DNA from: an uncultured Spirochaetota bacterium
Lineage (GTDB): Bacteria; Spirochaetota; Brevinematia; Brevinematales; JAOACQ01
NCBI GenBank assembly: GCA_963768055.1
Contig: CAVYGN010000001.1
Location: 1,230,080-1,294,079, forward strand
Length of the DNA: 64,000 bases
Reading direction: 5' to 3'
The notes under the pieces were generated by a model that saw only the letters and a program-made list of their open reading frames with translations, was not told the origin of the DNA and ran no database searches. The first letter of the stretch is position 1, and the number at the start of each line of letters is the position of its first letter. A program made the position numbers and the translations under genes. This document shows positions 5,955 to 51,667 of the stretch, one piece after another.

Positions 5955-7460
5955 ATGGCTTATTCCAATTCATTTTCCCTCGATCTTTTCCCTGAAAAAA
6001 TCCCCGAAGACCTGGTTTTCATCACAGAAAGGCTGAAATCTGAAGGATATGAGGCATTTCTCGTTGGGGGAGCGGTAAGGGATATCATTTTATCGGGTAT
6101 GAAGAAAAATTCTTATTCCGATATGGAGTTCGACTTAACGACAAACGCCGAACCCGAAAAGGTAATATCCCTGTTCAGGAAAAACGGCAGGACCAGGATT
6201 TTTACAGTTCCCACCGGGCTATTACATGGCACAGTCACTGTAATAATAGTAACGAACGATATCGCTTCCAGCTATGAAGTCACCACATACCGTGTAGACA
6301 GCTTTTATAAAGACGGCCGGCATCCTTCATCCGTAAGCTTTTCTTCATCATTGACTGAAGATCTTGCCCGAAGGGACTTTACAATCAACGCCCTTGCTTA
6401 TGATATACAGGAGAAGCAAGTAATCGATCCCTTTCAGGGGCTCTCAGATCTTAAAAGGAATATAATAAAAACTGTAGGAGACCCCTTGACCCGCTTCATG
6501 GAAGACGGATTACGGCCTGTGAGGGCCTGCCGTTTTGCAGCACAGCTCGGGTTTAAAATCGACAACGGCACTTTCGGGGCTATTCCAAGGGTATTAGAAA
6601 CTGTAAGAATGGTATCCCTTGAAAGGATCCATGACGAAATCATGAAACTCATGAAAACCGGAAAACCGTCTATCGGCATTGAATACTTGAGGAAATCGGG
6701 CATACTCGAAATATTTATTCCCGAATTGCTTGAAGGATACAGGCTCAATCAAAATGAGTATCATAAATACGATGTTTACTATCATAATTTATATACATGC
6801 GACGCGGTCAATTTGGCAAAACCCCAGATAAGGCTTGCCGGTCTTTTTCATGATATAGGAAAACCAAGGGCGCAGTATTTCGCTTCTACGAACGGCAACG
6901 GAAATGTGTTTTACAATCATGAAGTGATCGGTGAAAAGCTGACGGAAAAAATCCTTAAAAGGCTGAAATTCAGCAACAACGACACAAAAAAAATAAAGAA
7001 ATTGGTAAAGCTCCATATGTTTTATTATACGGAGGAATGGAGCGACGGTGCCGTGAGGCGTTTTTTAAAAAAACTGAGGGACGATTCCATAGACCTTGAC
7101 GATCTTTTCGAGCTTCGTAAAGCCGACAGGATAGGCAGCGGCCTGCGAAGCGGAGATGCTGAGATTCTTGATAAATTTAAAAATCGGATCGAAACTATCA
7201 TTAAAGAGGACAACGCCCTTAAAGTAACGGATCTTGACATAGACGGCAATGAAATAATGAAGCGGTTCAATATCGGCCCTTCGAAAATTATCGGGGAAAT
7301 TCTTGAATATATGCTCCAGAGAGTCCTTGACAATCCGGATTTAAACAAAAAAGATAAACTATATACTATAGGCGAGGAGTTTCTAAAAAAGAAAGCCGAT
7401 TCATTAAAAGAAAATTCCTCATCAAAAAATCAAACGGATGAAATGCCGATTTTCATTTAA
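5955..7460 (+). CDS. cca: CCA-adding tRNA nucleotidyltransferase / poly(A) polymerase family with HD domain
   Basis: 501 aa. LVGGAVRDIIL nucleotidyltransferase motif, RRDFTINALAY, and the HD motif GLFHDIGKP. Confidence 0.85.
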   Translation: MAYSNSFSLDLFPEKIPEDLVFITERLKSEGYEAFLVGGAVRDIILSGMKKNSYSDMEFDLTTNAEPEKVISLFRKNGRTRIFTVPTGLLHGTVTVIIVTNDIASSYEVTTYRVDSFYKDGRHPSSVSFSSSLTEDLARRDFTINALAYDIQEKQVIDPFQGLSDLKRNIIKTVGDPLTRFMEDGLRPVRACRFAAQLGFKIDNGTFGAIPRVLETVRMVSLERIHDEIMKLMKTGKPSIGIEYLRKSGILEIFIPELLEGYRLNQNEYHKYDVYYHNLYTCDAVNLAKPQIRLAGLFHDIGKPRAQYFASTNGNGNVFYNHEVIGEKLTEKILKRLKFSNNDTKKIKKLVKLHMFYYTEEWSDGAVRRFLKKLRDDSIDLDDLFELRKADRIGSGLRSGDAEILDKFKNRIETIIKEDNALKVTDLDIDGNEIMKRFNIGPSKIIGEILEYMLQRVLDNPDLNKKDKLYTIGEEFLKKKADSLKENSSSKNQTDEMPIFI

Positions 7461-9640: not shown

Positions 9641-9742
9641 TTGATTATTAACCCCGACTTTTCTATTTACATTTATTATTATATAATGCTAATATTATAA
9701 TCGGAATTTTTATGTTTACAAATAAAGAGGGGCCTTTTTTTT

Positions 9743-10906
9743 ATGAGTGATAATAAATTTTTCGATAAGATACTTGAAAATATCTCGAGGCTGGACGAAA
9801 CCAAGATCAAGTCCCTCATGGAAAACCTGGAAAACGAAAAGCGGATCTATAGGGACGCTCTTGAGAATTCTGAAGAAGCCCTTATAATCGTCAATGAAAA
9901 TAAGATATTCTTTATAAACCGGAACGCCAAAAGGCTGCTGATAACTCCGAATGTAATCAATCTTCCCGCATATCCCAATGAATTGAAAAAGCAGGTGGGC
10001 AACCAGGATCTTTTCTCTTTTCTGTTGAAAGCTATGGCAATGAACGATTTTAAAAAAGAATTCGCGGACAGTTCGAGGGAATCAAGGTATTATTTTGTCG
10101 AGAGGGTAACGGTTTCCAAGAATATTTTCCTTATCAAAGTAAAGGATATTTCAAAAAATAAGGAGATGGAATTCCAGTTGAAAAACCTGGAATCGGTTTC
10201 CGCCCTCAATACCCTTGCCGCCGGAATAGCCCATGAGATTAAAAATCCGCTCACAGCGATTGACCTTCATACCCAGATTTTAAAAAAAGGGATAAACAAG
10301 AAGATGATCGAGGTACCTCCAGAAGTTCTTCAATATGTTCAGATCATTGACGAGGAACAGAGAAGGCTTGGCCTGATCGTGAACGACTTCCTTACTGCCG
10401 CCAGGAAACGCGATCTCAAGCTTACTTTTGAAGATATAAATCAATACCTGAGAGATATACTGTTCCTGATCAAGCCGGAAATAGAAAAAAACGAGATCGG
10501 CCTCAATGAGGAATACGAAGATGTGCCCAAGATATTTATCGATAAGGATTACCTTAAACAGGCGGTGATAAATCTTTTGAAAAACGCGATGGAATCGATG
10601 AAAGCTTCCGTGAACGTTCAGGCCAAAAAAAAGATTCTCACTGTAAGGACATTTTATGACAATGCGATGGATTCTGTCGGCATCTCTATAATTGACAACG
10701 GGATGGGTATCGATAGTGAGAAAATAAAGAAAATTTTCGAACCCTATTACTCCACAAAAGACTATGGAACGGGCCTGGGTTTGACCATTGTCTATAAGAT
10801 AATACAGGAACATGGGGGCGATATCAAGGTCGAAAGCAGGAAAGGGGAAGGCAGTAATTTTACAATATACCTGCCTCTCTCAAAGGGGACAAAATTGATC
10901 TCTTAA
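9743..10906 (+). CDS. Cytoplasmic sensor histidine kinase (PAS-like N-terminus, HisKA, HATPase_c); no cognate response regulator adjacent
   Basis: H-box AHEIKNPLTAI, N-box LLKNAMESM, G-boxes DNGMGI and GTGLGL. No TM segments. Confidence 0.9.
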   Translation: MSDNKFFDKILENISRLDETKIKSLMENLENEKRIYRDALENSEEALIIVNENKIFFINRNAKRLLITPNVINLPAYPNELKKQVGNQDLFSFLLKAMAMNDFKKEFADSSRESRYYFVERVTVSKNIFLIKVKDISKNKEMEFQLKNLESVSALNTLAAGIAHEIKNPLTAIDLHTQILKKGINKKMIEVPPEVLQYVQIIDEEQRRLGLIVNDFLTAARKRDLKLTFEDINQYLRDILFLIKPEIEKNEIGLNEEYEDVPKIFIDKDYLKQAVINLLKNAMESMKASVNVQAKKKILTVRTFYDNAMDSVGISIIDNGMGIDSEKIKKIFEPYYSTKDYGTGLGLTIVYKIIQEHGGDIKVESRKGEGSNFTIYLPLSKGTKLIS

Positions 10907-11649: not shown

Positions 11650-12858
11650 TTATAACTGATAACCAAAGGAAACGCCGGCTGTAAAAGCCCCTCCGTAGGC
11701 TGTAGTTACAGGTATTAACCATATTGAACCCGATGAGGGTTTAGCTGTTAAATCATAGCCGTAAAATGCGTAAGGCATAATTACAAAATTGGCTACTTTT
11801 ATAGTAAATCCCCCCCCTATTTTTAATAAAAGAGGGCTGAATACATCAATTTGATCCTGGGTTAGCGTTACCGTTATGCCGTTTTCAGTTTCATTTAATA
11901 AAAAAACCTTTTCAAGCCCTATTGCAGGCCAGAAACTGAAAACGCTCGAGCCTAAAGGCAATTTAAGGAATATGCTTAAATCAAGGAATGAATCAGCGAC
12001 ATTTGTAACTGTTATATTTGTAGTATTGCCTAAAAGTACAAAAGAAGCGCTGGGTTGACCGGAATTAATACCATAACCTGCGCTTACGTTCAAGTAAGTC
12101 AAATCTAAAAATGTGCTGATGTACATGCTCGGTTCGCTAAAAACAGCACTCCATGGCAAAGATAAAGGGCTGCCCAGGCTGCCTGATAACAAATCCAAAT
12201 ATGATATATACTTCAAATCCAAACCGAAGCTTATAATGCTCGAATGCTGCTCATTTGTTTTTACCGGTATGTTTGTTTCCGCTTTTTCCTCGCTCGGATG
12301 CTGCTCCTCAGTTTTTTCCGGAGCGTTTGTTTCTATTTTTCCTTCGCTCGAAGGCTGCTCATTTGTTTTTTCCGGAATGTTTGTTTCTATTTTTTCTTCA
12401 TCAGAATAAGCCTCAAAACCGGCGTTTATATAAACACTGCCTTCATTATTCTCGAAACTGCCTCTTTCGCCGTTAGGAACAAAGATCACAAAATCATTTT
12501 TCTTTAATTCAACAGTTATATATTGGCCTTTCATGTTTTCTTCCGCTTTTTCAGGCGTTGATTCTTCCCCGTCGCTTCCCATCTGATAATCGAAAGATAC
12601 CGGGTACCCGTTGTTTCCATTCCCCCAGACAATATCCCGGTTAATATAGACCAGAATTTTTGTTTTATAACCGGGCTTTTCACTCAATTTATAAGCCCCT
12701 CTGGTAAATTCGAATGTATATGTGCCGGATTCTTCGGCAATATATTTTGTACCTGAGCTCATGTTTCCAGCTATTTGAATTTCTTTAGCGGCTCCAAAAG
12801 AAACCGCCGTAATAAAAAAGCAGAGGACCAACCCCGTTAAGGTTTTAATGCTCCACAT
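11650..12858 (-). CDS. Secreted protein: N-terminal beta-sandwich-like domain, 3x18-aa E/K/T-rich tandem repeat, C-terminal outer-membrane beta-barrel-like domain
   Basis: Signal peptide MWSIKTLTGLVLCFFITAVSFGAA. Alternating-hydrophobic strands in the last ~190 aa. AGGAG lies 7 nt upstream of the ATG. Confidence 0.65.
   Translation of the reverse strand: MWSIKTLTGLVLCFFITAVSFGAAKEIQIAGNMSSGTKYIAEESGTYTFEFTRGAYKLSEKPGYKTKILVYINRDIVWGNGNNGYPVSFDYQMGSDGEESTPEKAEENMKGQYITVELKKNDFVIFVPNGERGSFENNEGSVYINAGFEAYSDEEKIETNIPEKTNEQPSSEGKIETNAPEKTEEQHPSEEKAETNIPVKTNEQHSSIISFGLDLKYISYLDLLSGSLGSPLSLPWSAVFSEPSMYISTFLDLTYLNVSAGYGINSGQPSASFVLLGNTTNITVTNVADSFLDLSIFLKLPLGSSVFSFWPAIGLEKVFLLNETENGITVTLTQDQIDVFSPLLLKIGGGFTIKVANFVIMPYAFYGYDLTAKPSSGSIWLIPVTTAYGGAFTAGVSFGYQL
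12238..12399 (-). repeat. Three tandem copies of a ~54-nt coding repeat
   Basis: Encodes EKIETNIPEKTNEQPSSE / GKIETNAPEKTEEQHPSE / EKAETNIPVKTNEQHSS. The nucleotide repeat is visible as gctgctcatttgttttt...ggaatgtttgtttc units. Confidence 0.85.
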
Positions 12859-22551: not shown

Positions 22552-24993
22552 TCAGGCCCCTAACACATCCATGGCGGTCTTTACTGCCTCAACTGCGTTG
22601 ACGGAATAATGCGCTCCGATACTGTCCGAGAAATCCCGCGTTACAGCCGCTCCCCCGACAAGGACTTTGAAATTCCTGCCTTTTTCATTCATAAGTTCCA
22701 TGAATTCTTTCATCCTGGGCATTGTAGTTGTCATTAACGCGGACAGCGCGATTAAATCGGCATGATTTTCCATCGCTTTTTCAAGTATAATATCGTTAGG
22801 CACATCTTTACCCAGATCTATCACATCAAAGCCGTAATTCCTGAATAACAGGATAACAATATTCTTCCCTATATCGTGAACATCGCCTTTAACCGTTGCA
22901 AATACTACCCTGCCCTTCGAATTGCTTCTGCCGCCCTTGTTCAATAGAGGCTCGATAACAGAAAAGGCTGTTTTCATTGTCTCGGCCGAAAGCATTAATT
23001 GCGGAAGAAAATATATTTTTTTTTCGTAAAGATTGCCGACCTCATTTACCGCGGGCAGTAAAAATTTATTCAAAATATCGTCTGGGCCTATCGGCTCTTT
23101 AAGCGCATCCTCAATCAATATTGAAATATTCTCTTTGTTCCCCTTTAAAACGGCCTTGTACAACTTTTCCCCGACAGGCAAACTATCCCCTGATTTTTCT
23201 TCGTTTATAGTTTTAACTGTCTTAACACCCGCTTCGTTTTTGTCTTTTTCATAACCCGAGTAAGCGGTAATATATGCAGAGGCGTTGCCGTCCCTTGACA
23301 ATAAAACATCCGATGCCCTGACCATTCCCATCAGCTCGGAATCGAACGGGTTAACTATAGCCGAAGTAAGTCCGTTGGCAATGGCCATCGATAAAAAATT
23401 CCTGTTGATGAAAGAACGGGCGGGCAGGCCGAAGGAAATATTGGAAAGCCCGCATGTTGTGAAAAGGCCCAATTCCTCTTTGAATAATCTTATAGTCTTA
23501 AGCGTTTCAGCGGCCCCCTGCTGCTCAGCGCTTACCGTTAGAACAAGCGGGTCGGCGAGAATATTTTTTTTATCTATGCCGGTCCGAACGGCCTCATCGA
23601 CTATTTTCCTCATCAAAGCCGCTCTTTCCCCGGCGGTTTTCGGAATTCCCTTTTCGTCTATCGGCAAAGCTATAAAAGCCGCTCCGTATTTTTTAACATC
23701 TTTAAGCAGGCCAAGCCGGCTCCCTTCGGCAGAAATGGAATTGAGAAGCGGTTTCCCCGGATATATCTTCATTGCAGCAGCAGCTGCCTCCGGATTTGCG
23801 GTATCTATTGATAGAGGAGTTTTAACGAGATTACCCAGGATCTCTATCCCCTTCTCAAAATATAAAGCTTCGGAAATCCCCTCGATTCCCATGTTTAAAT
23901 CCAGTATCCCGGCTCCCGCACTTTCCTGGGCAAGGGCTTCATCCCGGAATAACTCAAAACGCCCTTCCTTAATATCTTCCGATAGTTTTTTACGTGCCGT
24001 CGGATTTAATCTTTCCCCTATTACAGTGAAAGGCAGGTCGAAGCCTATTTTCCTGACGGAATACCGGCTCGAAAGTTTCATAAAATCAATGACTGCCTTT
24101 TTCCTTTTAAGGAAAGGCTGTTGTTCTGCCGCTCTATCATGGAGAAATTTAATATGGTCGGGAGTCGTTCCGCAGCAGCCTCCTACGGCGTTCGCACCGC
24201 ATTCAATCATACGGAGGGCGGTGTCCGCGTAGCTTTCAGGCGTCGTTTTGAAAACCGTTTTCCCGTTCGAAAGGACCGGCTTGCCGGCGTTAGCCTGGGC
24301 AATAATTGGAATGGAAATCAGAGATTCTATTTCACGAATTATCCTGAGCATGTCAATAGGCCCGGTGCCGCAATTGGTTCCGGCCATATCGACTCCGAGG
24401 GCTTCCATAAGGGTAAAAGAAGCACCTGCGGGACTGCCGGTGACTGTTCTTCCGTCCTCTTCGAAAGTAATACTGGCTATTACCGGAAGATCGCAGACTT
24501 CCCTGCAGGCTATTATACCCGCTTTTAATTCCAGTATATCAATGTGGGTCTCGAAAAATATGCAGTCTGCGCCGGCATCGGCGAGAATTTCTATCTGTTC
24601 TTTATAAATATCTCCCATCTCGTCGAAAGATATACTGCCCAGCGGCTTTACGAACTTCCCGGTAGGGCCGACATCTCCGGCGACAAGAGCCCTGTTTTGA
24701 GCCGCCTTCTTCGCCAGCTTTACAGCCGCCCCGTTTATTTCTTTAAGCCTGTTTTCAAGATTAAACTCGGAAAGCTTTATCCTGTTTCCGCCTAATGTAT
24801 TTGTAATGATCAGATCGCTTCCCGCTTCGATATAGCTTCTGTGCACCGATTCGATAATATCACCATTGGTAATATTCCAAAGCTCCGGACAATCCCCGCC
24901 TGAGAGACCATACTTTTGAAGCAGCACTCCCATCGACCCGTCGCTGAAAGCCACGGATCCAAGGGATTTTTCATAAAACTCCTTCCAATTCAC
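22552..24993 (-). CDS. metH: Cobalamin-dependent methionine synthase, short form (Hcy-binding + pterin-binding + B12-binding; no AdoMet reactivation domain)
   Basis: 813 aa. GGCCGTTPDHI zinc site and DVHDIGKNIV (DxHxxG) B12 motif near the C-terminus. GTG start with AGGAG ~8 nt upstream. Confidence 0.9.
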   Translation of the reverse strand: MNWKEFYEKSLGSVAFSDGSMGVLLQKYGLSGGDCPELWNITNGDIIESVHRSYIEAGSDLIITNTLGGNRIKLSEFNLENRLKEINGAAVKLAKKAAQNRALVAGDVGPTGKFVKPLGSISFDEMGDIYKEQIEILADAGADCIFFETHIDILELKAGIIACREVCDLPVIASITFEEDGRTVTGSPAGASFTLMEALGVDMAGTNCGTGPIDMLRIIREIESLISIPIIAQANAGKPVLSNGKTVFKTTPESYADTALRMIECGANAVGGCCGTTPDHIKFLHDRAAEQQPFLKRKKAVIDFMKLSSRYSVRKIGFDLPFTVIGERLNPTARKKLSEDIKEGRFELFRDEALAQESAGAGILDLNMGIEGISEALYFEKGIEILGNLVKTPLSIDTANPEAAAAAMKIYPGKPLLNSISAEGSRLGLLKDVKKYGAAFIALPIDEKGIPKTAGERAALMRKIVDEAVRTGIDKKNILADPLVLTVSAEQQGAAETLKTIRLFKEELGLFTTCGLSNISFGLPARSFINRNFLSMAIANGLTSAIVNPFDSELMGMVRASDVLLSRDGNASAYITAYSGYEKDKNEAGVKTVKTINEEKSGDSLPVGEKLYKAVLKGNKENISILIEDALKEPIGPDDILNKFLLPAVNEVGNLYEKKIYFLPQLMLSAETMKTAFSVIEPLLNKGGRSNSKGRVVFATVKGDVHDIGKNIVILLFRNYGFDVIDLGKDVPNDIILEKAMENHADLIALSALMTTTMPRMKEFMELMNEKGRNFKVLVGGAAVTRDFSDSIGAHYSVNAVEAVKTAMDVLGA

Positions 24994-25011
24994 GAAGGCT
25001 TTCTCCTTTCA

Positions 25012-25112
25012 ATATGTCGATTAAGGGCGCTTTTAATATACCCTAACGGACACCTTCGGCCCTTCGGATAGGAAGCGCACCTGTCCTGGGGCCAGGCACC
25101 AGGGCCCATAGG
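25012..25112 (+). repeat. Structured intergenic repeat, copy 1 (inverted copy at 50408-50488)
   Basis: The 40-nt core aagcgcacctgtcctggggccaggcaccagggcccatagg (25073-25112) matches the reverse complement of 50408-50447 at 39/40. A shared left arm, atat.tcg.tt.agggcgc, is also present. Confidence 0.8.
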
Positions 25113-25302
25113 GCAAATATTATAAATACACAGTTCTTTTAGAAGATAGGATGATATTCTTGATGCATTAGAACTGCCATTAATTCTATATTATTTCATT
25201 GAAAATTCCTAATTATTGCAGGAATATATTGACTTACCCGGCTATGGGCAGTATATGGGTTTCAAAGATGTTACAATAAAATAAATTTTATTATATAAAC
25301 TG

Positions 25303-25331
25303 TTGACAAAATCATTTCAATTAGTTACAAT
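25303..25331 (+). promoter_or_regulatory. Near-consensus sigma70 promoter (TTGACA-17 nt-TACAAT) of the TetR operon
   Basis: ttgacaaaatcatttcaattagttacaat. The ORF-track start TTG at 25303 is the first three bases of this -35 hexamer. Confidence 0.6.
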
Positions 25332-25969: not shown

Positions 25970-26335
25970 ATGCAAAATTACGACAACTTTTTTCTTCCGG
26001 TTGACGATTTAAAATCAGCTAAGGAATATTATGAAAATGTCCTTGGAATGAAAGTCAAGTTTGATTTTTCACCCCAGGGCATGATAGCGTTCCAGGTCGG
26101 GAAACTGGAACCGGCTGTAATTTTGAAAGACCGGAACAAATTTCCGGATGTTAAACCCGCAATCTGGTTTGTCGTATCCGATGTTGCACAGGAATATCAA
26201 AAAATGAAGAAGAAGGGAGTGTTTTTTTTATCGGAACCATTTAAGATAAAAACAGGCATGGCCGTCGAGTTCGAAGACCCTTTCGGCAACAGAATGGGTA
26301 TTACCGATTATTCTGGAATTGAAATTCATAAATAG
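25970..26335 (+). CDS. VOC / glyoxalase-bleomycin-resistance family protein
   Basis: 121 aa. Typical VOC pattern PVDDLKSAKEYYENVLGMKV...FEDPFGNRMGI. AGGAGG RBS. Confidence 0.75.
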   Translation: MQNYDNFFLPVDDLKSAKEYYENVLGMKVKFDFSPQGMIAFQVGKLEPAVILKDRNKFPDVKPAIWFVVSDVAQEYQKMKKKGVFFLSEPFKIKTGMAVEFEDPFGNRMGITDYSGIEIHK

Positions 26336-26354
26336 TAATATCAGGAGAAAAAAA

Positions 26355-26600
26355 ATGAAAATTTGTATTGCATGCGGAATGCCAATGATAAAAGAGGAAG
26401 AGTTCGCAATGGGCGATATATCAAAGGATTATTGCGTTCATTGCGCCCGGTCTGACGGCAGTATGCAGTCTTACGATGAAAAGCTTGAAAGCATGGCAGG
26501 GTTTATCATCAAAACCCAGGGCTTTGATAGAAAAGCGGCCAGGGAAGCTGCAAGAGGAATGATGAGAAAACTTCCGGCTTGGCGGGAGTATCATTTATAA
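26355..26600 (+). CDS. Small zinc-ribbon protein
   Basis: CIACGMP...CVHC. Start moved to ATG 26355 (CAGGAG upstream). Confidence 0.6.
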   Translation: MKICIACGMPMIKEEEFAMGDISKDYCVHCARSDGSMQSYDEKLESMAGFIIKTQGFDRKAAREAARGMMRKLPAWREYHL

Positions 26601-32589: not shown

Positions 32590-32791
32590 CCCATTTCACC
32601 TCACTTCGAGTAACCCCTATCCCCTTTAAATAATATAGAATGCCGCCTGATATATATCAAATTTTCTTCGTCCCAATTTGAATAATTGATTTTTGGATGA
32701 TATACTTATGGGCAGTTCTCATAATTCAAGAATATTGTACATAGCCTATGCGCCCTTATTGATTTTTGTCGTTAAAATGGGGGAAAACCTT

Positions 32792-33334
32792 ATGCCTGAA
32801 AATAAATGGCATTCAACTACAGTCATTTGTGTTAGAAAAGAAGATTATATCGCGATGGCGGGAGACGGCCAGGTAACTCTTGGAGAAACTGTCATAAAGA
32901 GCAACGCAGTCAAGATAAGAAAGCTTTTTAAGGATACTGTTCTCGCCGGTTTTGCAGGCTCGGCCGCCGATGCATTCGCTTTGCTGGAAAAATTCGAGAC
33001 AAAACTGGAGGAATATTCCGGGGACATAGTTAAATCAAGCGTTAGCCTGGCCAAGGATTGGCGGCTCGATAAATACTTAAGACAACTTGAAGCGATGCTG
33101 ATCGTTGCGAATAATAAAAACACTCTGCTTATTTCCGGAAACGGTAATATTATCGAACCCGAGGATAATATCGCCGCGATTGGTTCAGGGGCTCCCTATG
33201 CCAGGGCTGCAGCGCTTGCTTTTTTATCCTCGAACCCGGACATGGCGATAAAGGATGTCGCTTACCAGTCGCTTAAAATCGCTTCAAGGATCTGTATATA
33301 TACCAATGACAGCATAACCGTAGAAGTTCTGTAA
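32792..33334 (+). CDS. hslV: ATP-dependent protease subunit HslV (with short propeptide)
   Basis: MPENKWHS-TTVICVRK...GDGQVTLGE...GFAGSAADAF. Start moved to ATG 32792. The upstream track extension has no RBS and no HslV homology. Confidence 0.88.
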   Translation: MPENKWHSTTVICVRKEDYIAMAGDGQVTLGETVIKSNAVKIRKLFKDTVLAGFAGSAADAFALLEKFETKLEEYSGDIVKSSVSLAKDWRLDKYLRQLEAMLIVANNKNTLLISGNGNIIEPEDNIAAIGSGAPYARAAALAFLSSNPDMAIKDVAYQSLKIASRICIYTNDSITVEVL

Positions 33335-48437: not shown

Positions 48438-49136
48438 ATGGCTTCAAATGATAACTCGTACATTCAAAGAATAAATAACGGAAGGTCCTTTTCTATCAAG
48501 TTATATAATAACGACAGGGGCATAAATAACTCGATCAAGAGAACAATTGAAAGTATTTTTATTAAATATAACAGGAATGATTTGAACGATATCATCTATT
48601 TTTGCATAAAAGAACTGATCCTGAATGCGATAATGACTAATGTAAAATCCCTTTTTTTTCAAAAAAATAAGCTCAATATAAACAACATCGCGGATTATGT
48701 CGCCGGAATTACAAAGTTTAACGATATGATTGAAAAAAACGAGGCAAAAAAATATTTCGCTGCGCTTCCTGAAGAAGATCTCTGGGTAAAATTCAATGTG
48801 AAGCATAGTAAACATGGATTAAAATTCGAAATAACGAATAATTCCCCTATTGTAGGAATAGAGGAAAAACAGATCAGGATGAAGCTCCAGAAATCGATGA
48901 TTTCCATAGATTTGATAGATTTTAACAATGACCTCGGATATGACGCCTATGATGAAAAGATGGGACTTGCCATGGTCGCAATGCTGCTTAAAAAGGCAAA
49001 CCTGGATGTCAGCCTTTTTCGCGTAGGAACGACTAACGGTATAACACTCTCCCGCATCGAAGTGCCGTTCTCTTCAAAGTTCAGGTCCAGCAGGAATAAA
49101 AAACCCGTAATAAAAAATGCCGGGGACGAGACTTGA
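48438..49136 (+). CDS. Hypothetical GHKL/HATPase_c-like protein (possible anti-sigma-type kinase)
   Basis: N-box-like IKELILNAIMTN and G-box-like EKMGLAMVAMLL. The assignment is weak. Confidence 0.4.
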   Translation: MASNDNSYIQRINNGRSFSIKLYNNDRGINNSIKRTIESIFIKYNRNDLNDIIYFCIKELILNAIMTNVKSLFFQKNKLNINNIADYVAGITKFNDMIEKNEAKKYFAALPEEDLWVKFNVKHSKHGLKFEITNNSPIVGIEEKQIRMKLQKSMISIDLIDFNNDLGYDAYDEKMGLAMVAMLLKKANLDVSLFRVGTTNGITLSRIEVPFSSKFRSSRNKKPVIKNAGDET

Positions 49137-49201
49137 ACTCACACAGGCTAACGCCCACTAGCCCCTCAAGCTAGCGTGTCTACCAATTCCACCACCCCGG
49201 C
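49118..49201 (-). tRNA. tRNA-Leu (anticodon GAG), class II with long variable arm; CCA not encoded
   Basis: GCCGGGGTGGTGGAATTGGTAGACACGCTAGCTTGAGGGGCTAGTGGGCGTTAGCCTGTGTGAGTTCAAGTCTCGTCCCCGGCA. It has a 7-bp acceptor stem, the anticodon stem-loop CTAGC-TTGAGGG-GCTAG, and the T-loop TTCAAGT. Confidence 0.92.
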
Positions 49202-49257: not shown

Positions 49258-50271
49258 CTAAAAATTAATTTCGTCACCGATATAAAACCTTGTATATACT
49301 CCATCGGAGCCGATCAAAATCCCAAACGAATCTACCTTGAAAAATTCCTTTTTAAGAGAAACCTCGTAAAGAGTTGGGGCGTAATTCATTATCAACTCCC
49401 TGAAACCCAGGGTAAATTCATGCCAGGTTACCGCTTCCTCAAGCCTTACCCAGATATTTCCTGTAAGGGGATCATAAGTCTGGTCAGCGGAATTTGTTGT
49501 GCCTCCCCCCCAGTAAATCCCCTCAAGAATGCCATTGAAGGTAAAATCCCCAGCCTGGTATTTTCCCCCGAAACTCAACTGGCTGCAGGTCGCTATATTA
49601 GAAAGGCCGGTATCGAACCAGTTTGTAACTATCTCCGAATGCTGAAATAAAGCTCTTATATAGAAATTATCGAAAGTAATTTTCCCAAGAATCGCCTTGG
49701 GTATATCGTGCCTGAAATCCCCCTGGGAATAAGCCAGTTCGAAATGATCATCCATGTAGCCTGCCCTGATCCCCGCCGGCGGCACGACATAATTAATATT
49801 GTTGTTTACGTACTGCGGAGGCGAATCATAAGTCTCCGTCGAGTTATTTCCGTTTATATACGATGGAAAAAGCATGAAAGTTTCGGTATTGAACTGGTAG
49901 ACGGCCGCTCCTCGCAGGGAAATGAAAAACATTTTAAACAGCCTGTATTCCGAACCGTAATCGTAGAGATTGAGGTTGCCCAGGTCATACCCGTAGTTAG
50001 TATCCGGATTATGAGTATCTTTATAACCGTAAACAGTGGCGAATATCTGCAGATCGTTTATATCGTCGCTAAAATCGTAATTCCCTCTTGCATACATAAA
50101 CCTCACCTGTGCCGTATCGGAGTGGAAACCGTAACTCGCCAGCCCGTAAGAATGAATGTCGAAAGCGTTTGTCTCAAAGTAGTCGTCAGATATGTAGTCG
50201 ATTGAAAAAGCGGTTCCAGCGCAGATAACCATTGCCGCCGATATAGCAACCGCCGCAGAATACTTAAACAT
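49258..50271 (-). CDS. Hypothetical outer-membrane beta-barrel protein
   Basis: Signal peptide MFKYSAAVAISAAMVICAGTAFS, aromatic-rich alternating strands, and a C-terminal ...GDEINF. ATG 50271 lies 7 nt after AGGAG (the track starts one codon earlier at a TTG). Confidence 0.6.
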   Translation of the reverse strand: MFKYSAAVAISAAMVICAGTAFSIDYISDDYFETNAFDIHSYGLASYGFHSDTAQVRFMYARGNYDFSDDINDLQIFATVYGYKDTHNPDTNYGYDLGNLNLYDYGSEYRLFKMFFISLRGAAVYQFNTETFMLFPSYINGNNSTETYDSPPQYVNNNINYVVPPAGIRAGYMDDHFELAYSQGDFRHDIPKAILGKITFDNFYIRALFQHSEIVTNWFDTGLSNIATCSQLSFGGKYQAGDFTFNGILEGIYWGGGTTNSADQTYDPLTGNIWVRLEEAVTWHEFTLGFRELIMNYAPTLYEVSLKKEFFKVDSFGILIGSDGVYTRFYIGDEINF

Positions 50272-50407
50272 CAATAGCTCCTAAAAAATGATCATTAGTA
50301 TAAAGGGCAGATAAAATAATTCAAGAATATTGCTTATTGCATTACGGGCGGTTCCAAAAACTATTTTTGAAATTAACAATTATTGTCCTGATTGTAATCA
50401 AGATCGT

Positions 50408-50488
50408 CCTATGAGCCCTGGTGCCTGGCCCCAGGACAGGTGCGCTTGTCCCCGTAGGGCCCGTAGGGAGCGCCCTAAAGCGAAATAT
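50408..50488 (-). repeat. Structured intergenic repeat, copy 2 (inverted relative to 25012-25112)
   Basis: The reverse complement reads atatttcgctttagggcgc-tccctacgggccctacgggg-ac-aagcgcacctgtcctggggccaggcaccagggctcatagg. Confidence 0.8.
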
Positions 50489-50563
50489 TAAAATTTTAAA
50501 GATAAGGGACAGTAATCCTGAAAAATGATTGAACGGGGTTTACTTGCTACTTGCAGCTCGTAA

Positions 50564-51667
50564 CTAAATAATATCCAGATGGCTGTACAATATGAAAAAA
50601 GATATCAGAAATGACAGAATCAGGATCAGAAAACCGGAGGCTGTTTTTAAAAAGACGCTTTTCCTGTTTCTAACCCGGCCCATTAACGATATATCCAGTA
50701 AAGCCTTGATCCTTAACAGCAGCGGCGATGATTCGGTATAAAGGCACGACATGAGGGAAAATTGAGGGGTTTTTATATAAAAGGCGGCTTTTTTTAAAAG
50801 CTCCGCAAGGGTAATCGAATTGCAGTCATAGTTAACGCAGTTGTTATCACAGGTCAATTCCCTCGTCAGGTTGATCTTTTTCACATATTGGTGGATAAAG
50901 GGTATAAACCAGAAAAATGATTTCATCAAAATCACTAAATGCTGGGTCAACGCGTTCAACCAGCCTATATGCCCTATCTCATGCACTATCAGTGCCTCAT
51001 ATTCTTCATCTGTCAGCTTTTTATAAAAATTAGCCGGGATTATAATTTTAGGGTTCATTATTCCATAGGAGAAGGGTGAAAAACCCTTTTCAGCGGATAT
51101 CCATATTTTAATCTTTTTACTTTCCAGACGCTTAATGAGCTGCGTATTCGTGATCACGCGCTTTGACAATTGCGAACCTGCCAAAATGATTTTTGTGGTT
51201 ATTATGGAATAAGCGGTTTTAATAACGCTAATTATCAACAGGAATAATGATACAGTTAAGAGAGACAAAACTATCATGAGGGTGTATTTAAAACCGATAT
51301 GCTGAGTAAAGATATCGGTAAGAGTAACCATATAGTTATTGTAAATCGAGATATACATATAAAATGTAGGAATATAATAATATGTAGGACCAGCTCCCAT
51401 GTGAAGGGTCATCGACTGTGGAAGTCGATTGACAATGTCAATTCCCCTCGCGACAGCCCAGGAGGCGGTATTAAAATTAAATATTATATCATAAATAATT
51501 TTCAGAAATGGAAGCATTCTAAAAAAATAAACAGTCTTGAACATTTTCTTCCTGTTGAAGCCCAGGATCAGGATAAAAAACTCTACCATAAGGGCAGATA
51601 TACCGAAAGCTATAATGCTGTTGAAAACAATATTAGCCAAATAATAAATTAAAATTTCACCCGGCAT
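50564..51667 (-). CDS. BlaR1/MecR1-like M56 peptidase-family membrane signal transducer lacking a penicillin-binding sensor domain
   Basis: Multi-TM N-terminus and zinc motif LIVHEIGHIGW. The short C-terminal region contains CDNNCVNYDC. Confidence 0.75.
   Translation of the reverse strand: MPGEILIYYLANIVFNSIIAFGISALMVEFFILILGFNRKKMFKTVYFFRMLPFLKIIYDIIFNFNTASWAVARGIDIVNRLPQSMTLHMGAGPTYYYIPTFYMYISIYNNYMVTLTDIFTQHIGFKYTLMIVLSLLTVSLFLLIISVIKTAYSIITTKIILAGSQLSKRVITNTQLIKRLESKKIKIWISAEKGFSPFSYGIMNPKIIIPANFYKKLTDEEYEALIVHEIGHIGWLNALTQHLVILMKSFFWFIPFIHQYVKKINLTRELTCDNNCVNYDCNSITLAELLKKAAFYIKTPQFSLMSCLYTESSPLLLRIKALLDISLMGRVRNRKSVFLKTASGFLILILSFLISFFILYSHLDII

Follow-up and report, generated by a model that had tools for sequence, protein, structure and literature searches.

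As far as can be judged from alignment with related genomes, the GC-rich repeat upstream of metH is part of a larger non-coding insertion. We consider it rather probable that this insertion is a small, non-autonomous and lineage-specific element of the MITE/REP-like type, a kind of 'mobile promoter', and that the repeat is its GC-rich internal module. In the window (the whole stretch of 64,000 nucleotides analysed here), we have found three copies, of which two are long (~158 and ~175 nt) and one is internally deleted (~52 nt); the GC-rich module is present in two of the three. All three are insertions relative to the orthologous loci of relatives, and all lie within promoter or 5′-UTR DNA. 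That is, multiple dispersed copies occur which are polymorphic between relatives, with three in 64 kb and every corresponding site empty. We favour the mobile-element reading because there are three insertions, because conservation along the element is mosaic, because one copy is a deleted derivative, and because the element has neither coding capacity nor a nearby transposase. No transposase was found in the window, and the window and the syntenic blocks consist of housekeeping genes; since no transposase is encoded in either, the element should be non-autonomous. As a sequence family it is new, and its kind is a known one. Of the three options raised by the first-pass annotation (a REP/MITE-like element, an sRNA or a cis-regulatory leader), the first has gained from the three unrelated intergenic insertions with empty orthologous sites, while the other two have lost ground.

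The core of the repeat, AAGCGCACCTGTCCTGGGGCCAGGCACCAGGGCCCATAGG, occurs exactly at 25073-25112 (plus strand) and with one mismatch at 50408-50447 (minus strand), which agrees with the identity of 39/40 reported before. No such match arose in 100 shuffles (0 expected by chance), and the core pair is the longest inverted repeat in the 64-kb window. The left arm is 16/19 identical between copies 1 and 2, again as described, and the genes flanking copy 1 are indeed metH (with four Pfam domains) and a TetR regulator. The extent should be corrected in two points. The 40-nt core is borne out, while the homology actually runs 2 nt further, to 25114 and 50406, respectively; and the 101-nt interval originally delimited is real, yet according to the empty-site comparison it makes up only the left two thirds of the ~158-nt insertion. 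Copies 1 and 2, which are in inverted orientation and 25.3 kb apart, are the only non-coding stretches reaching 65% GC over 40 nt in a window of 41% GC, and their cores score 118 and 90 bits, respectively, with a covariance model. Along the element, near-identity is seen in the core and at the termini, and the interior cannot be aligned.

The nearest named homologues of metH belong to Brevinematales/Brevinematia spirochaetes. Syntenic loci of relatives (denoted by L and a number) were found through proteins that are 66–81% identical, and all three sites are flanked by conserved synteny to the left and to the right. Copy 1 lies between metH (22552-24993, minus strand) and the gene called for a 195-aa TetR protein (start 25363), and the features at this site are as follows.

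25011..25168, plus strand: copy 1, whole insertion of ~158 nt (boundaries ±3 nt, from local alignments with L020 and L019)
25011..25030, plus strand: left terminal arm AATATGTCGATTAAGGGCGC, whose GGGCGC is the predicted 5′ strand of helix P1
25031..25072, plus strand: variable region of tandem CCTTCGG / CCCTTCGG units
25073..25114, plus strand: core, with the predicted 3′ strand of P1 (AGCGCaCCU) and helix P2 (GUCCUGGGGCC..GGGCCCAUAGGGC)
25115..25153, plus strand: AT-rich spacer, unalignable with copy 2
25154..25168, plus strand: right terminal module ATATTCTTGATGCAT (exact motif match)
25169..25178, plus strand: resident flank TAGAACTGCC, candidate target site
25183..25212, minus strand: conserved metH promoter (−35 TTAGGA, 18-nt spacer, −10 TAGAAT)

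In L020 and L019, the sequence upstream of metH aligns to 25214->25169 (the promoter half) and to 25012->24963 (the half with the ribosome-binding site), and to nothing between them. The 155–158 nt between the aligned halves are therefore an insertion. The site is empty in L019, L020 and L021; in these relatives the promoter (TTGGGA-18-TAAAAT, as predicted for the L020 counterpart of the block) is followed by the ribosome-binding site 15 nt later, and the metH upstream region of L022 likewise lacks the element. The gene order DUF362, glyoxalase and TetR beside metH is the same in the window, L020 and L021, and L019 matches on the metH side. The flank TAGAACTGCC is homologous to TATAACGGCT in L020 and to the matching stretch in L019; it can be aligned base by base to the empty sites and hence belongs to the resident DNA, outside the element. 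Copy 1 is located between the −10 box/transcription start of metH and its ribosome-binding site, and the metH promoter would transcribe it antisense, as a 5′ UTR of ~185 nt. An antisense-strand metH riboswitch has been rejected, as the leader of the relatives measures only ~25 nt and, on the strand in question, no gene follows copy 2. The sigma-54 −24/−12 consensus is TGGCAC-N5-TTGCA, and the minus-strand junction between resident DNA and copy 1 (25164-25179), TGGCAG-TTCTA-ATGCA, closely resembles it and is oriented toward metH. A sigma-54 promoter for the right module has also been rejected: only copy 1 fits (TGGCAG-N5-ATGCA), copies 2 and 3 do not have the −12 GC, and the likeness is taken as coincidence.

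The second copy separates the genes for a BlaR1-like M56 peptidase (50564-51667, minus strand) and for a 337-aa protein without a Pfam family (49258-50271, minus strand).

50315..50489, minus strand: copy 2, whole insertion of ~175 nt (empty sites in L012 and L015)
50470..50489, minus strand: left terminal arm AATATTTCGCTTTAGGGCGC
50448..50469, minus strand: variable region, CCCTACGGG twice
50406..50447, minus strand: core (predicted P1 3′ strand and P2)
50315..50330, minus strand: right terminal module ATATTCTTGAATTATT, containing a −35 TTGAAT (50324-50319)
50297..50302, minus strand: resident −10 TATACT of the 337-aa gene

The right boundary of copy 2 is ambiguous by ~4 nt, owing to a T run. 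The spacer between BlaR1 and the 337-aa gene measures 292 nt in the window, versus ~127 nt in L012 and ~76 nt in L015, where the order BlaI-BlaR1-hypothetical gene is kept and no GC-rich element is found in the spacer. In the relatives, the −10 box comes 12 nt after the shared block CTTTAAAATTTT (the L015 promoter being TTTAAA-17-TATAAT), while in the window ~175 nt are intercalated between this block and the −10 box. The −35 TTTAAA, which is the partner of the resident −10 in the relatives, thus lies upstream of copy 2 in the window, and the TTGAAT of copy 2 is 16 nt from the resident TATACT. Judged by this arrangement, the outward-facing TTGAAT of copy 2 has likely taken over as the −35 of the 337-aa gene. 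The strand of copy 2 expected to be transcribed, as the 3′ region of blaR1, is the sense strand.

The third copy is found upstream of hslV.

32718..32769, minus strand: copy 3, internally deleted, ~52 nt, both ends kept (..TCAATAAGGGCGC, then ATAGG..ATATTCTTGAATTATGAG)
32711..32717, minus strand: resident flank AACTGCC, candidate target site by copy 3

This site reads ..TCAATAAGGGCGC, then ATAGGCTATGTACAATATTCTTGAATTATGAG, then AACTGCC. In copy 3 the left arm is fused straight to ATAGG, the end of the core, and the right module follows; we read it as an internally deleted derivative which has both termini. An alternative MAFFT alignment assigns the site to the 3′ half of copy 2. The site is empty in L020 and L022, where ~50 nt are absent. 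Copy 3 sits between the −10 box of hslV and its ribosome-binding site, with the hslV promoter predicted as TTGAAT-17-TATACT (32678-32706, plus strand) and the start placed at 32792 by alignment with L020. From their positions, copies 1 and 3 likely lengthen the leaders of metH and hslV.

The ends of the element can be described from these copies. The left arm has the consensus AATATKTCG..AGGGCGC, and the right module common to all three copies is ATATTCTTGA plus 5–8 nt (N8). The 15-base motif ATATTCTTGA-N10-CTGCC has exactly three matches in the window, at 25154 (plus), 50306 (minus) and 32711 (minus). Its 12-base version has four matches in 183 kb, with none added at one mismatch, while shuffles give ~1 match at ≤1 mismatch. 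All three copies abut A(A/T)CTGCC, 3–6 nt from a −10-like hexamer: on the flipped strand, the sequence up to the junction is TAGAAT-taat-GGCAGTT at site 1, TAGTAT-aaag-GGCAGAT at site 2 and TATACT-tat-GGGCAGTT at site 3. The conserved flank points to a target preference, for which these three sites give hints. No consistent direct repeat was seen between filled and empty sites that would qualify as a target-site duplication, though the AT-rich flanks could hide TA or 1–2 nt. As candidate terminal inverted repeats, matches of the AATAWTTC..AAG type can be seen by eye between the ends (7/8 in copy 2, 10/13 in copy 3 and 5/8 in copy 1); these matches are short, AT-rich, in need of an indel and statistically unconvincing.

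The fourth 12-base match comes from L022 (metH 72% identical), at 6520, upstream of an AMP-binding gene. There the site reads ATTCTTGAGTTATTAAA and, past the junction, ATTGCCCG-TATAAG, with the same right module and flank. What precedes this module is another GC-rich palindromic repeat, with many GTCGAC, of which a second copy lies upstream of L022 metH. This suggests, at the level of sequence, a clade-wide type of element with species-specific hairpins; so the species of this clade appear to carry different extragenic palindromes in similar places, at times joined to the same promoter-like end.

The palindromic repeat of L022 (2.74 Mb) is made of CAGTCGACAG units, at 6445-6507 and 9740-9802; the two copies of 63 nt are 79% complementary, and each can be drawn as a hairpin. 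The first follows an HD-domain gene, the second is immediately upstream of metH, and both precede a TTGA(A/G)T −35-like hexamer.

Several other differences have been noted around these loci. Downstream of TetR (25970-26598), a glyoxalase gene is followed by a Zn-ribbon gene; the order is reversed in L020:8603-9201, and L016 has an extra gene of 235 aa. An 84-nt tRNA whose variable arm is long (49118-49201) separates the 337-aa gene of the window from the next conserved gene; at this position L012:11347-13764 carries a RelB/ParE toxin-antitoxin pair together with genes for a B12-binding radical SAM protein and a TetR regulator, so the tRNA spot is variable between genomes. In addition, three tandem 54-nt repeats (76–87% identical) at 12238-12399 lie inside an ORF of 402 aa on the minus strand (11650-12858); it belongs to no Pfam family and looks like a repetitive protein.

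Further copies of the GC-rich module were sought in several ways. With a covariance model of the two copies, no other copy was detected in the window and the loci of seven relatives (119 kb; 183 kb in total). Exact matches to the CCTGNCCTGGGGCCAGGNNNCAGG hairpin, three in GTDB genomes and four in JGI metagenomes, have been dismissed as chance, as they lie in DNA of 56–72% GC and are without the flanking AAGCGC. An exact-pattern scan of viral contigs gave 0 matches, and no similarity to plasmids and phages was found by blastn. Logan contigs extended the same genome past the window by 2.4 kb, which is coding DNA and contains no copy. Five Logan contigs of the same organism (L001, L005, L006, L007 and L018; ERR10755942 / ERR11596056) all end inside the 33-nt identical core, on four sides; such breaks are expected because the core is a repeat. 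Actually, three of the four ends stop 7–12 nt short of the two-copy prediction (k=31), which may come from more variants (e.g., with another number of CCTTCGG units) or from low coverage over the GC-rich hairpin. We have not taken the breaks as extra copies, as the other ends lie in ordinary coding DNA and coverage gaps are an equally good cause. The first-pass annotation had stated that a lack of further copies and of covariation would speak against a selected structure; the outcome is divided, as neither a further GC-rich copy nor any two-sided change has been found, yet the termini do occur in a third copy.

It is very unlikely, in our judgement, that the repeat is a structured RNA, i.e., a trans-acting sRNA or a cis-acting leader or riboswitch in which P1 with its variable hairpins and P2 make up the functional fold. 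Such an RNA would agree with the restriction of non-coding GC-rich islands to the two copies in a 41% GC window, and with the two-domain minimum-energy architecture that both share. RNAalifold on the two copies predicts P1 as AGGGCGCU/AGCGCaCCU around the variable region, which upholds the closing helix GGGCGC/GCGC proposed earlier, while the P2 hairpin common to both (GUCCUGGGGCC...GGGCYCAUAGGRC) reaches −17.3 and −14.9 kcal/mol. The hairpin CCUG-u-CCUG(GGGC)CAGG-cac-CAGG put forward previously can form (−10.2 kcal/mol), but it is clearly less stable than this alternative. Both substitutions in P2 between the copies are one-sided and G-U compatible in the sense of the first-pass annotation, and the variable region retains small hairpins despite its sequence change. 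The tandem units described for copy 1 are there, but the first is CCTTCGG rather than CC-UUCG-GG, and as tetraloop hairpins such units have just 1–2 closing pairs. On the other hand, folding is no better than in shuffles (z = −1.7 and −1.35 in that sense, and −0.7 and −0.8 in antisense, none significant), and 0 of 20 predicted pairs in the two copies show a two-sided compensatory change in the annotated sense. That the UNCG loops read in the same sense had been taken as a sign of selection on structure; this argument is weak, as the orientation follows from the common descent of the arms. The complement of the UUCG / UACG loops reads C(GAA)G / C(GTA)G, and GNA triloops are very stable in single-stranded DNA, so the loop type chooses no strand. 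As to known families, Rfam at gathering thresholds yields just the tRNA at 49118-49201 over the whole window, and at E≤10 the two loci, searched on either strand, gave only noise (MicC, AfaR, SNORD47, E>1). A cis-regulatory leader is disfavoured by this result and by the lack of conservation in relatives: a 5′-UTR position is conserved neither for metH (L019–L022) nor for the 337-aa gene (L012, L015), the element is absent upstream of the TetR and 337-aa orthologues as well, and its GC-rich part lies upstream of the predicted promoters of the TetR gene (25303-25331, 11/12 match, downstream of copy 1) and the 337-aa gene (downstream of the GC-rich part of copy 2), outside their leaders. A free-standing sRNA finds no Rfam match either; no flanking promoter-like or terminator-like sites are predicted at copies 1 and 2, and the strand expected to be transcribed is antisense at copy 1 and sense at copy 2. 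In addition, copy 3 is without the whole module, yet its ends are kept. An RNA function is thus unsupported.

An unlikely reading, to which we still allow some weight, is a shared regulatory DNA module, i.e., a promoter plus an operator with protein-binding GC-rich palindromes, duplicated before several genes, which would have spread by recombination (promoter capture) with no dedicated transposition. All three copies are hosted by promoter regions, the TTGAAT of copy 2 has the correct spacing of 16 nt to the resident −10, the same module precedes a −10-like TATAAG in L022, and highly similar upstream sequences before unrelated genes of one genome have been described as 'putative mobile promoters' (PMC3575422). 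However, the right module of copy 1 faces away from metH and is 125 nt upstream of the TetR promoter; that of copy 3 is 15 or 19 nt from a −10, and the HD-domain gene downstream of it has its own predicted promoter; the three downstream genes show no obvious common function; and the orthologous promoters of relatives, as predicted, work without the module. That the copies are debris of something larger, i.e., solo IS ends or the terminal repeats of a transposon or an invertible segment of 25 kb, seems to us highly improbable. The inverted GC-rich copies 25.3 kb apart would suit it, as would a tRNA gene 1.2 kb from copy 2, but L012 is collinear inside and outside copy 2 (BlaI-BlaR1, then hyp - ... 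- NfeD - CvpA - NTP transferase - PEGA - CHASE2 cyclase), and the 25 kb are resident chromosome rather than cargo. On the basis of this synteny, a composite transposon or an invertible 25-kb segment has been rejected. Moreover, the interval holds housekeeping genes and no recombinase, the similarity runs outward from it and not inward, and no plasmid or phage record is similar. An inversion between the copies has likewise been set aside, as the BlaR1-hyp junction is ancestral (L012, L015) and there is no evidence for such an event.

Returning to the mobile insertion element, the P1 and P2 hairpins together with the termini would be the recognition structures for a mobilising enzyme encoded elsewhere, which may act on single-stranded DNA, and insertion would prefer ...GGCAG(T/A)T next to a −10 box. 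The conserved hairpins probably serve mobilisation; gene conversion, or selection for some cellular function, could instead explain why the core is nearly identical (39/40) next to an interior that cannot be aligned. The right module, in turn, might be no terminus of the element but a common promoter motif. We regard as quite unlikely the bolder version, in which this is an undescribed miniature element of Brevinematales with strand-specific insertion after −10 boxes, no terminal inverted repeats or target-site duplication, an outward −35 and a swapped hairpin cargo. Such an element would insert a few bases past the −10 at ...GGCAG(T/A)T, perhaps via the single-stranded DNA of the open complex, and its hairpin 'cargo' would be exchanged by species, namely the module of the window versus the GTCGAC palindromes of L022. 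It would then be a dedicated promoter-rewiring device, mobilised by an HUH-type or other enzyme.

If the mobile-element reading is true, a false riboswitch/sRNA lead upstream of metH is removed, and housekeeping genes (metH, hslV) are seen to receive a small mobile element in their promoters and leaders, in a spirochaete order, Brevinematales, that has been little studied and is known mostly from metagenome-assembled genomes. The −35 replacement by copy 2, if it holds, would be a concrete case in which miniature mobile DNA rewires transcription. The one-sided flank by −10 boxes and the swap of hairpins between species are the sole features possibly beyond the ordinary, and with three copies they count as hints.

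Compared with known systems, the element is like the riboswitches and leaders of methionine genes (SAM, SAH, cobalamin, T-box) in its place immediately upstream of metH, where it would be in the 5′ UTR. Unlike these, it has no covariance-model match, is missing from the metH upstream regions of the three closest relatives, and has a second copy with no following gene on that strand. With miniature elements derived from IS200/IS605 (PATEs), it may share the absence of terminal inverted repeats and target-site duplication, a short conserved sequence at one end only (GGCAG(T/A)T before the junction on the flipped strand, at three sites) and predicted structured DNA near the other. It differs from PATEs in that the window has no TnpA/TnpB gene or full-length parent, the hairpins near one end are only predicted, and no Rfam family matches. 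REP/REPIN sequences (RAYT, IS200/IS605-like Y1) resemble it in being GC-rich imperfect palindromes in extragenic places of an AT-richer genome. As with them, its sequence is species-specific, L022 having a different palindromic family in comparable places; it shows neither clear terminal inverted repeats nor a target-site duplication; and the hairpins would form in single-stranded DNA. Unlike REP, a conserved GTAG-type tetranucleotide at the hairpin foot is not found in both copies: copy 2 has GTAG on its flipped strand alone (in CCCGTAGGG, which occurs twice), and copy 1 (CCGAAGG) does not have it. A REP is a palindrome of 20–40 nt or an inverted doublet, while the present element has two unequal helices, a variable insert and a long AT-rich tail, with two GC-rich copies in 64 kb by the covariance model and no RAYT gene in the window.

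Similar upstream sequences before unrelated genes of one genome have been termed 'putative mobile promoters' (Nijveen, Matus-Garcia and van Passel 2012, PMC3575422), and Correia, ERIC and REPIN are named beside them as promoter-bearing elements (PMC3575422). In sequence, the element is not similar to any described family, and unlike Correia and ERIC it has neither clear terminal inverted repeats nor a demonstrable duplication of TA or another target, and it is seen in three copies with a conserved 7-nt sequence on one flank. In its general properties, it is like the Correia elements of Neisseria, the ERIC elements of enterobacteria and the putative mobile promoters: it is non-coding, intergenic and ~100–200 bp in length, related genomes differ in whether they carry it, its insertions fall into promoters or leaders, it can provide a −35 that faces outward and add a structured segment to the mRNA, and it occurs in internally deleted variants.
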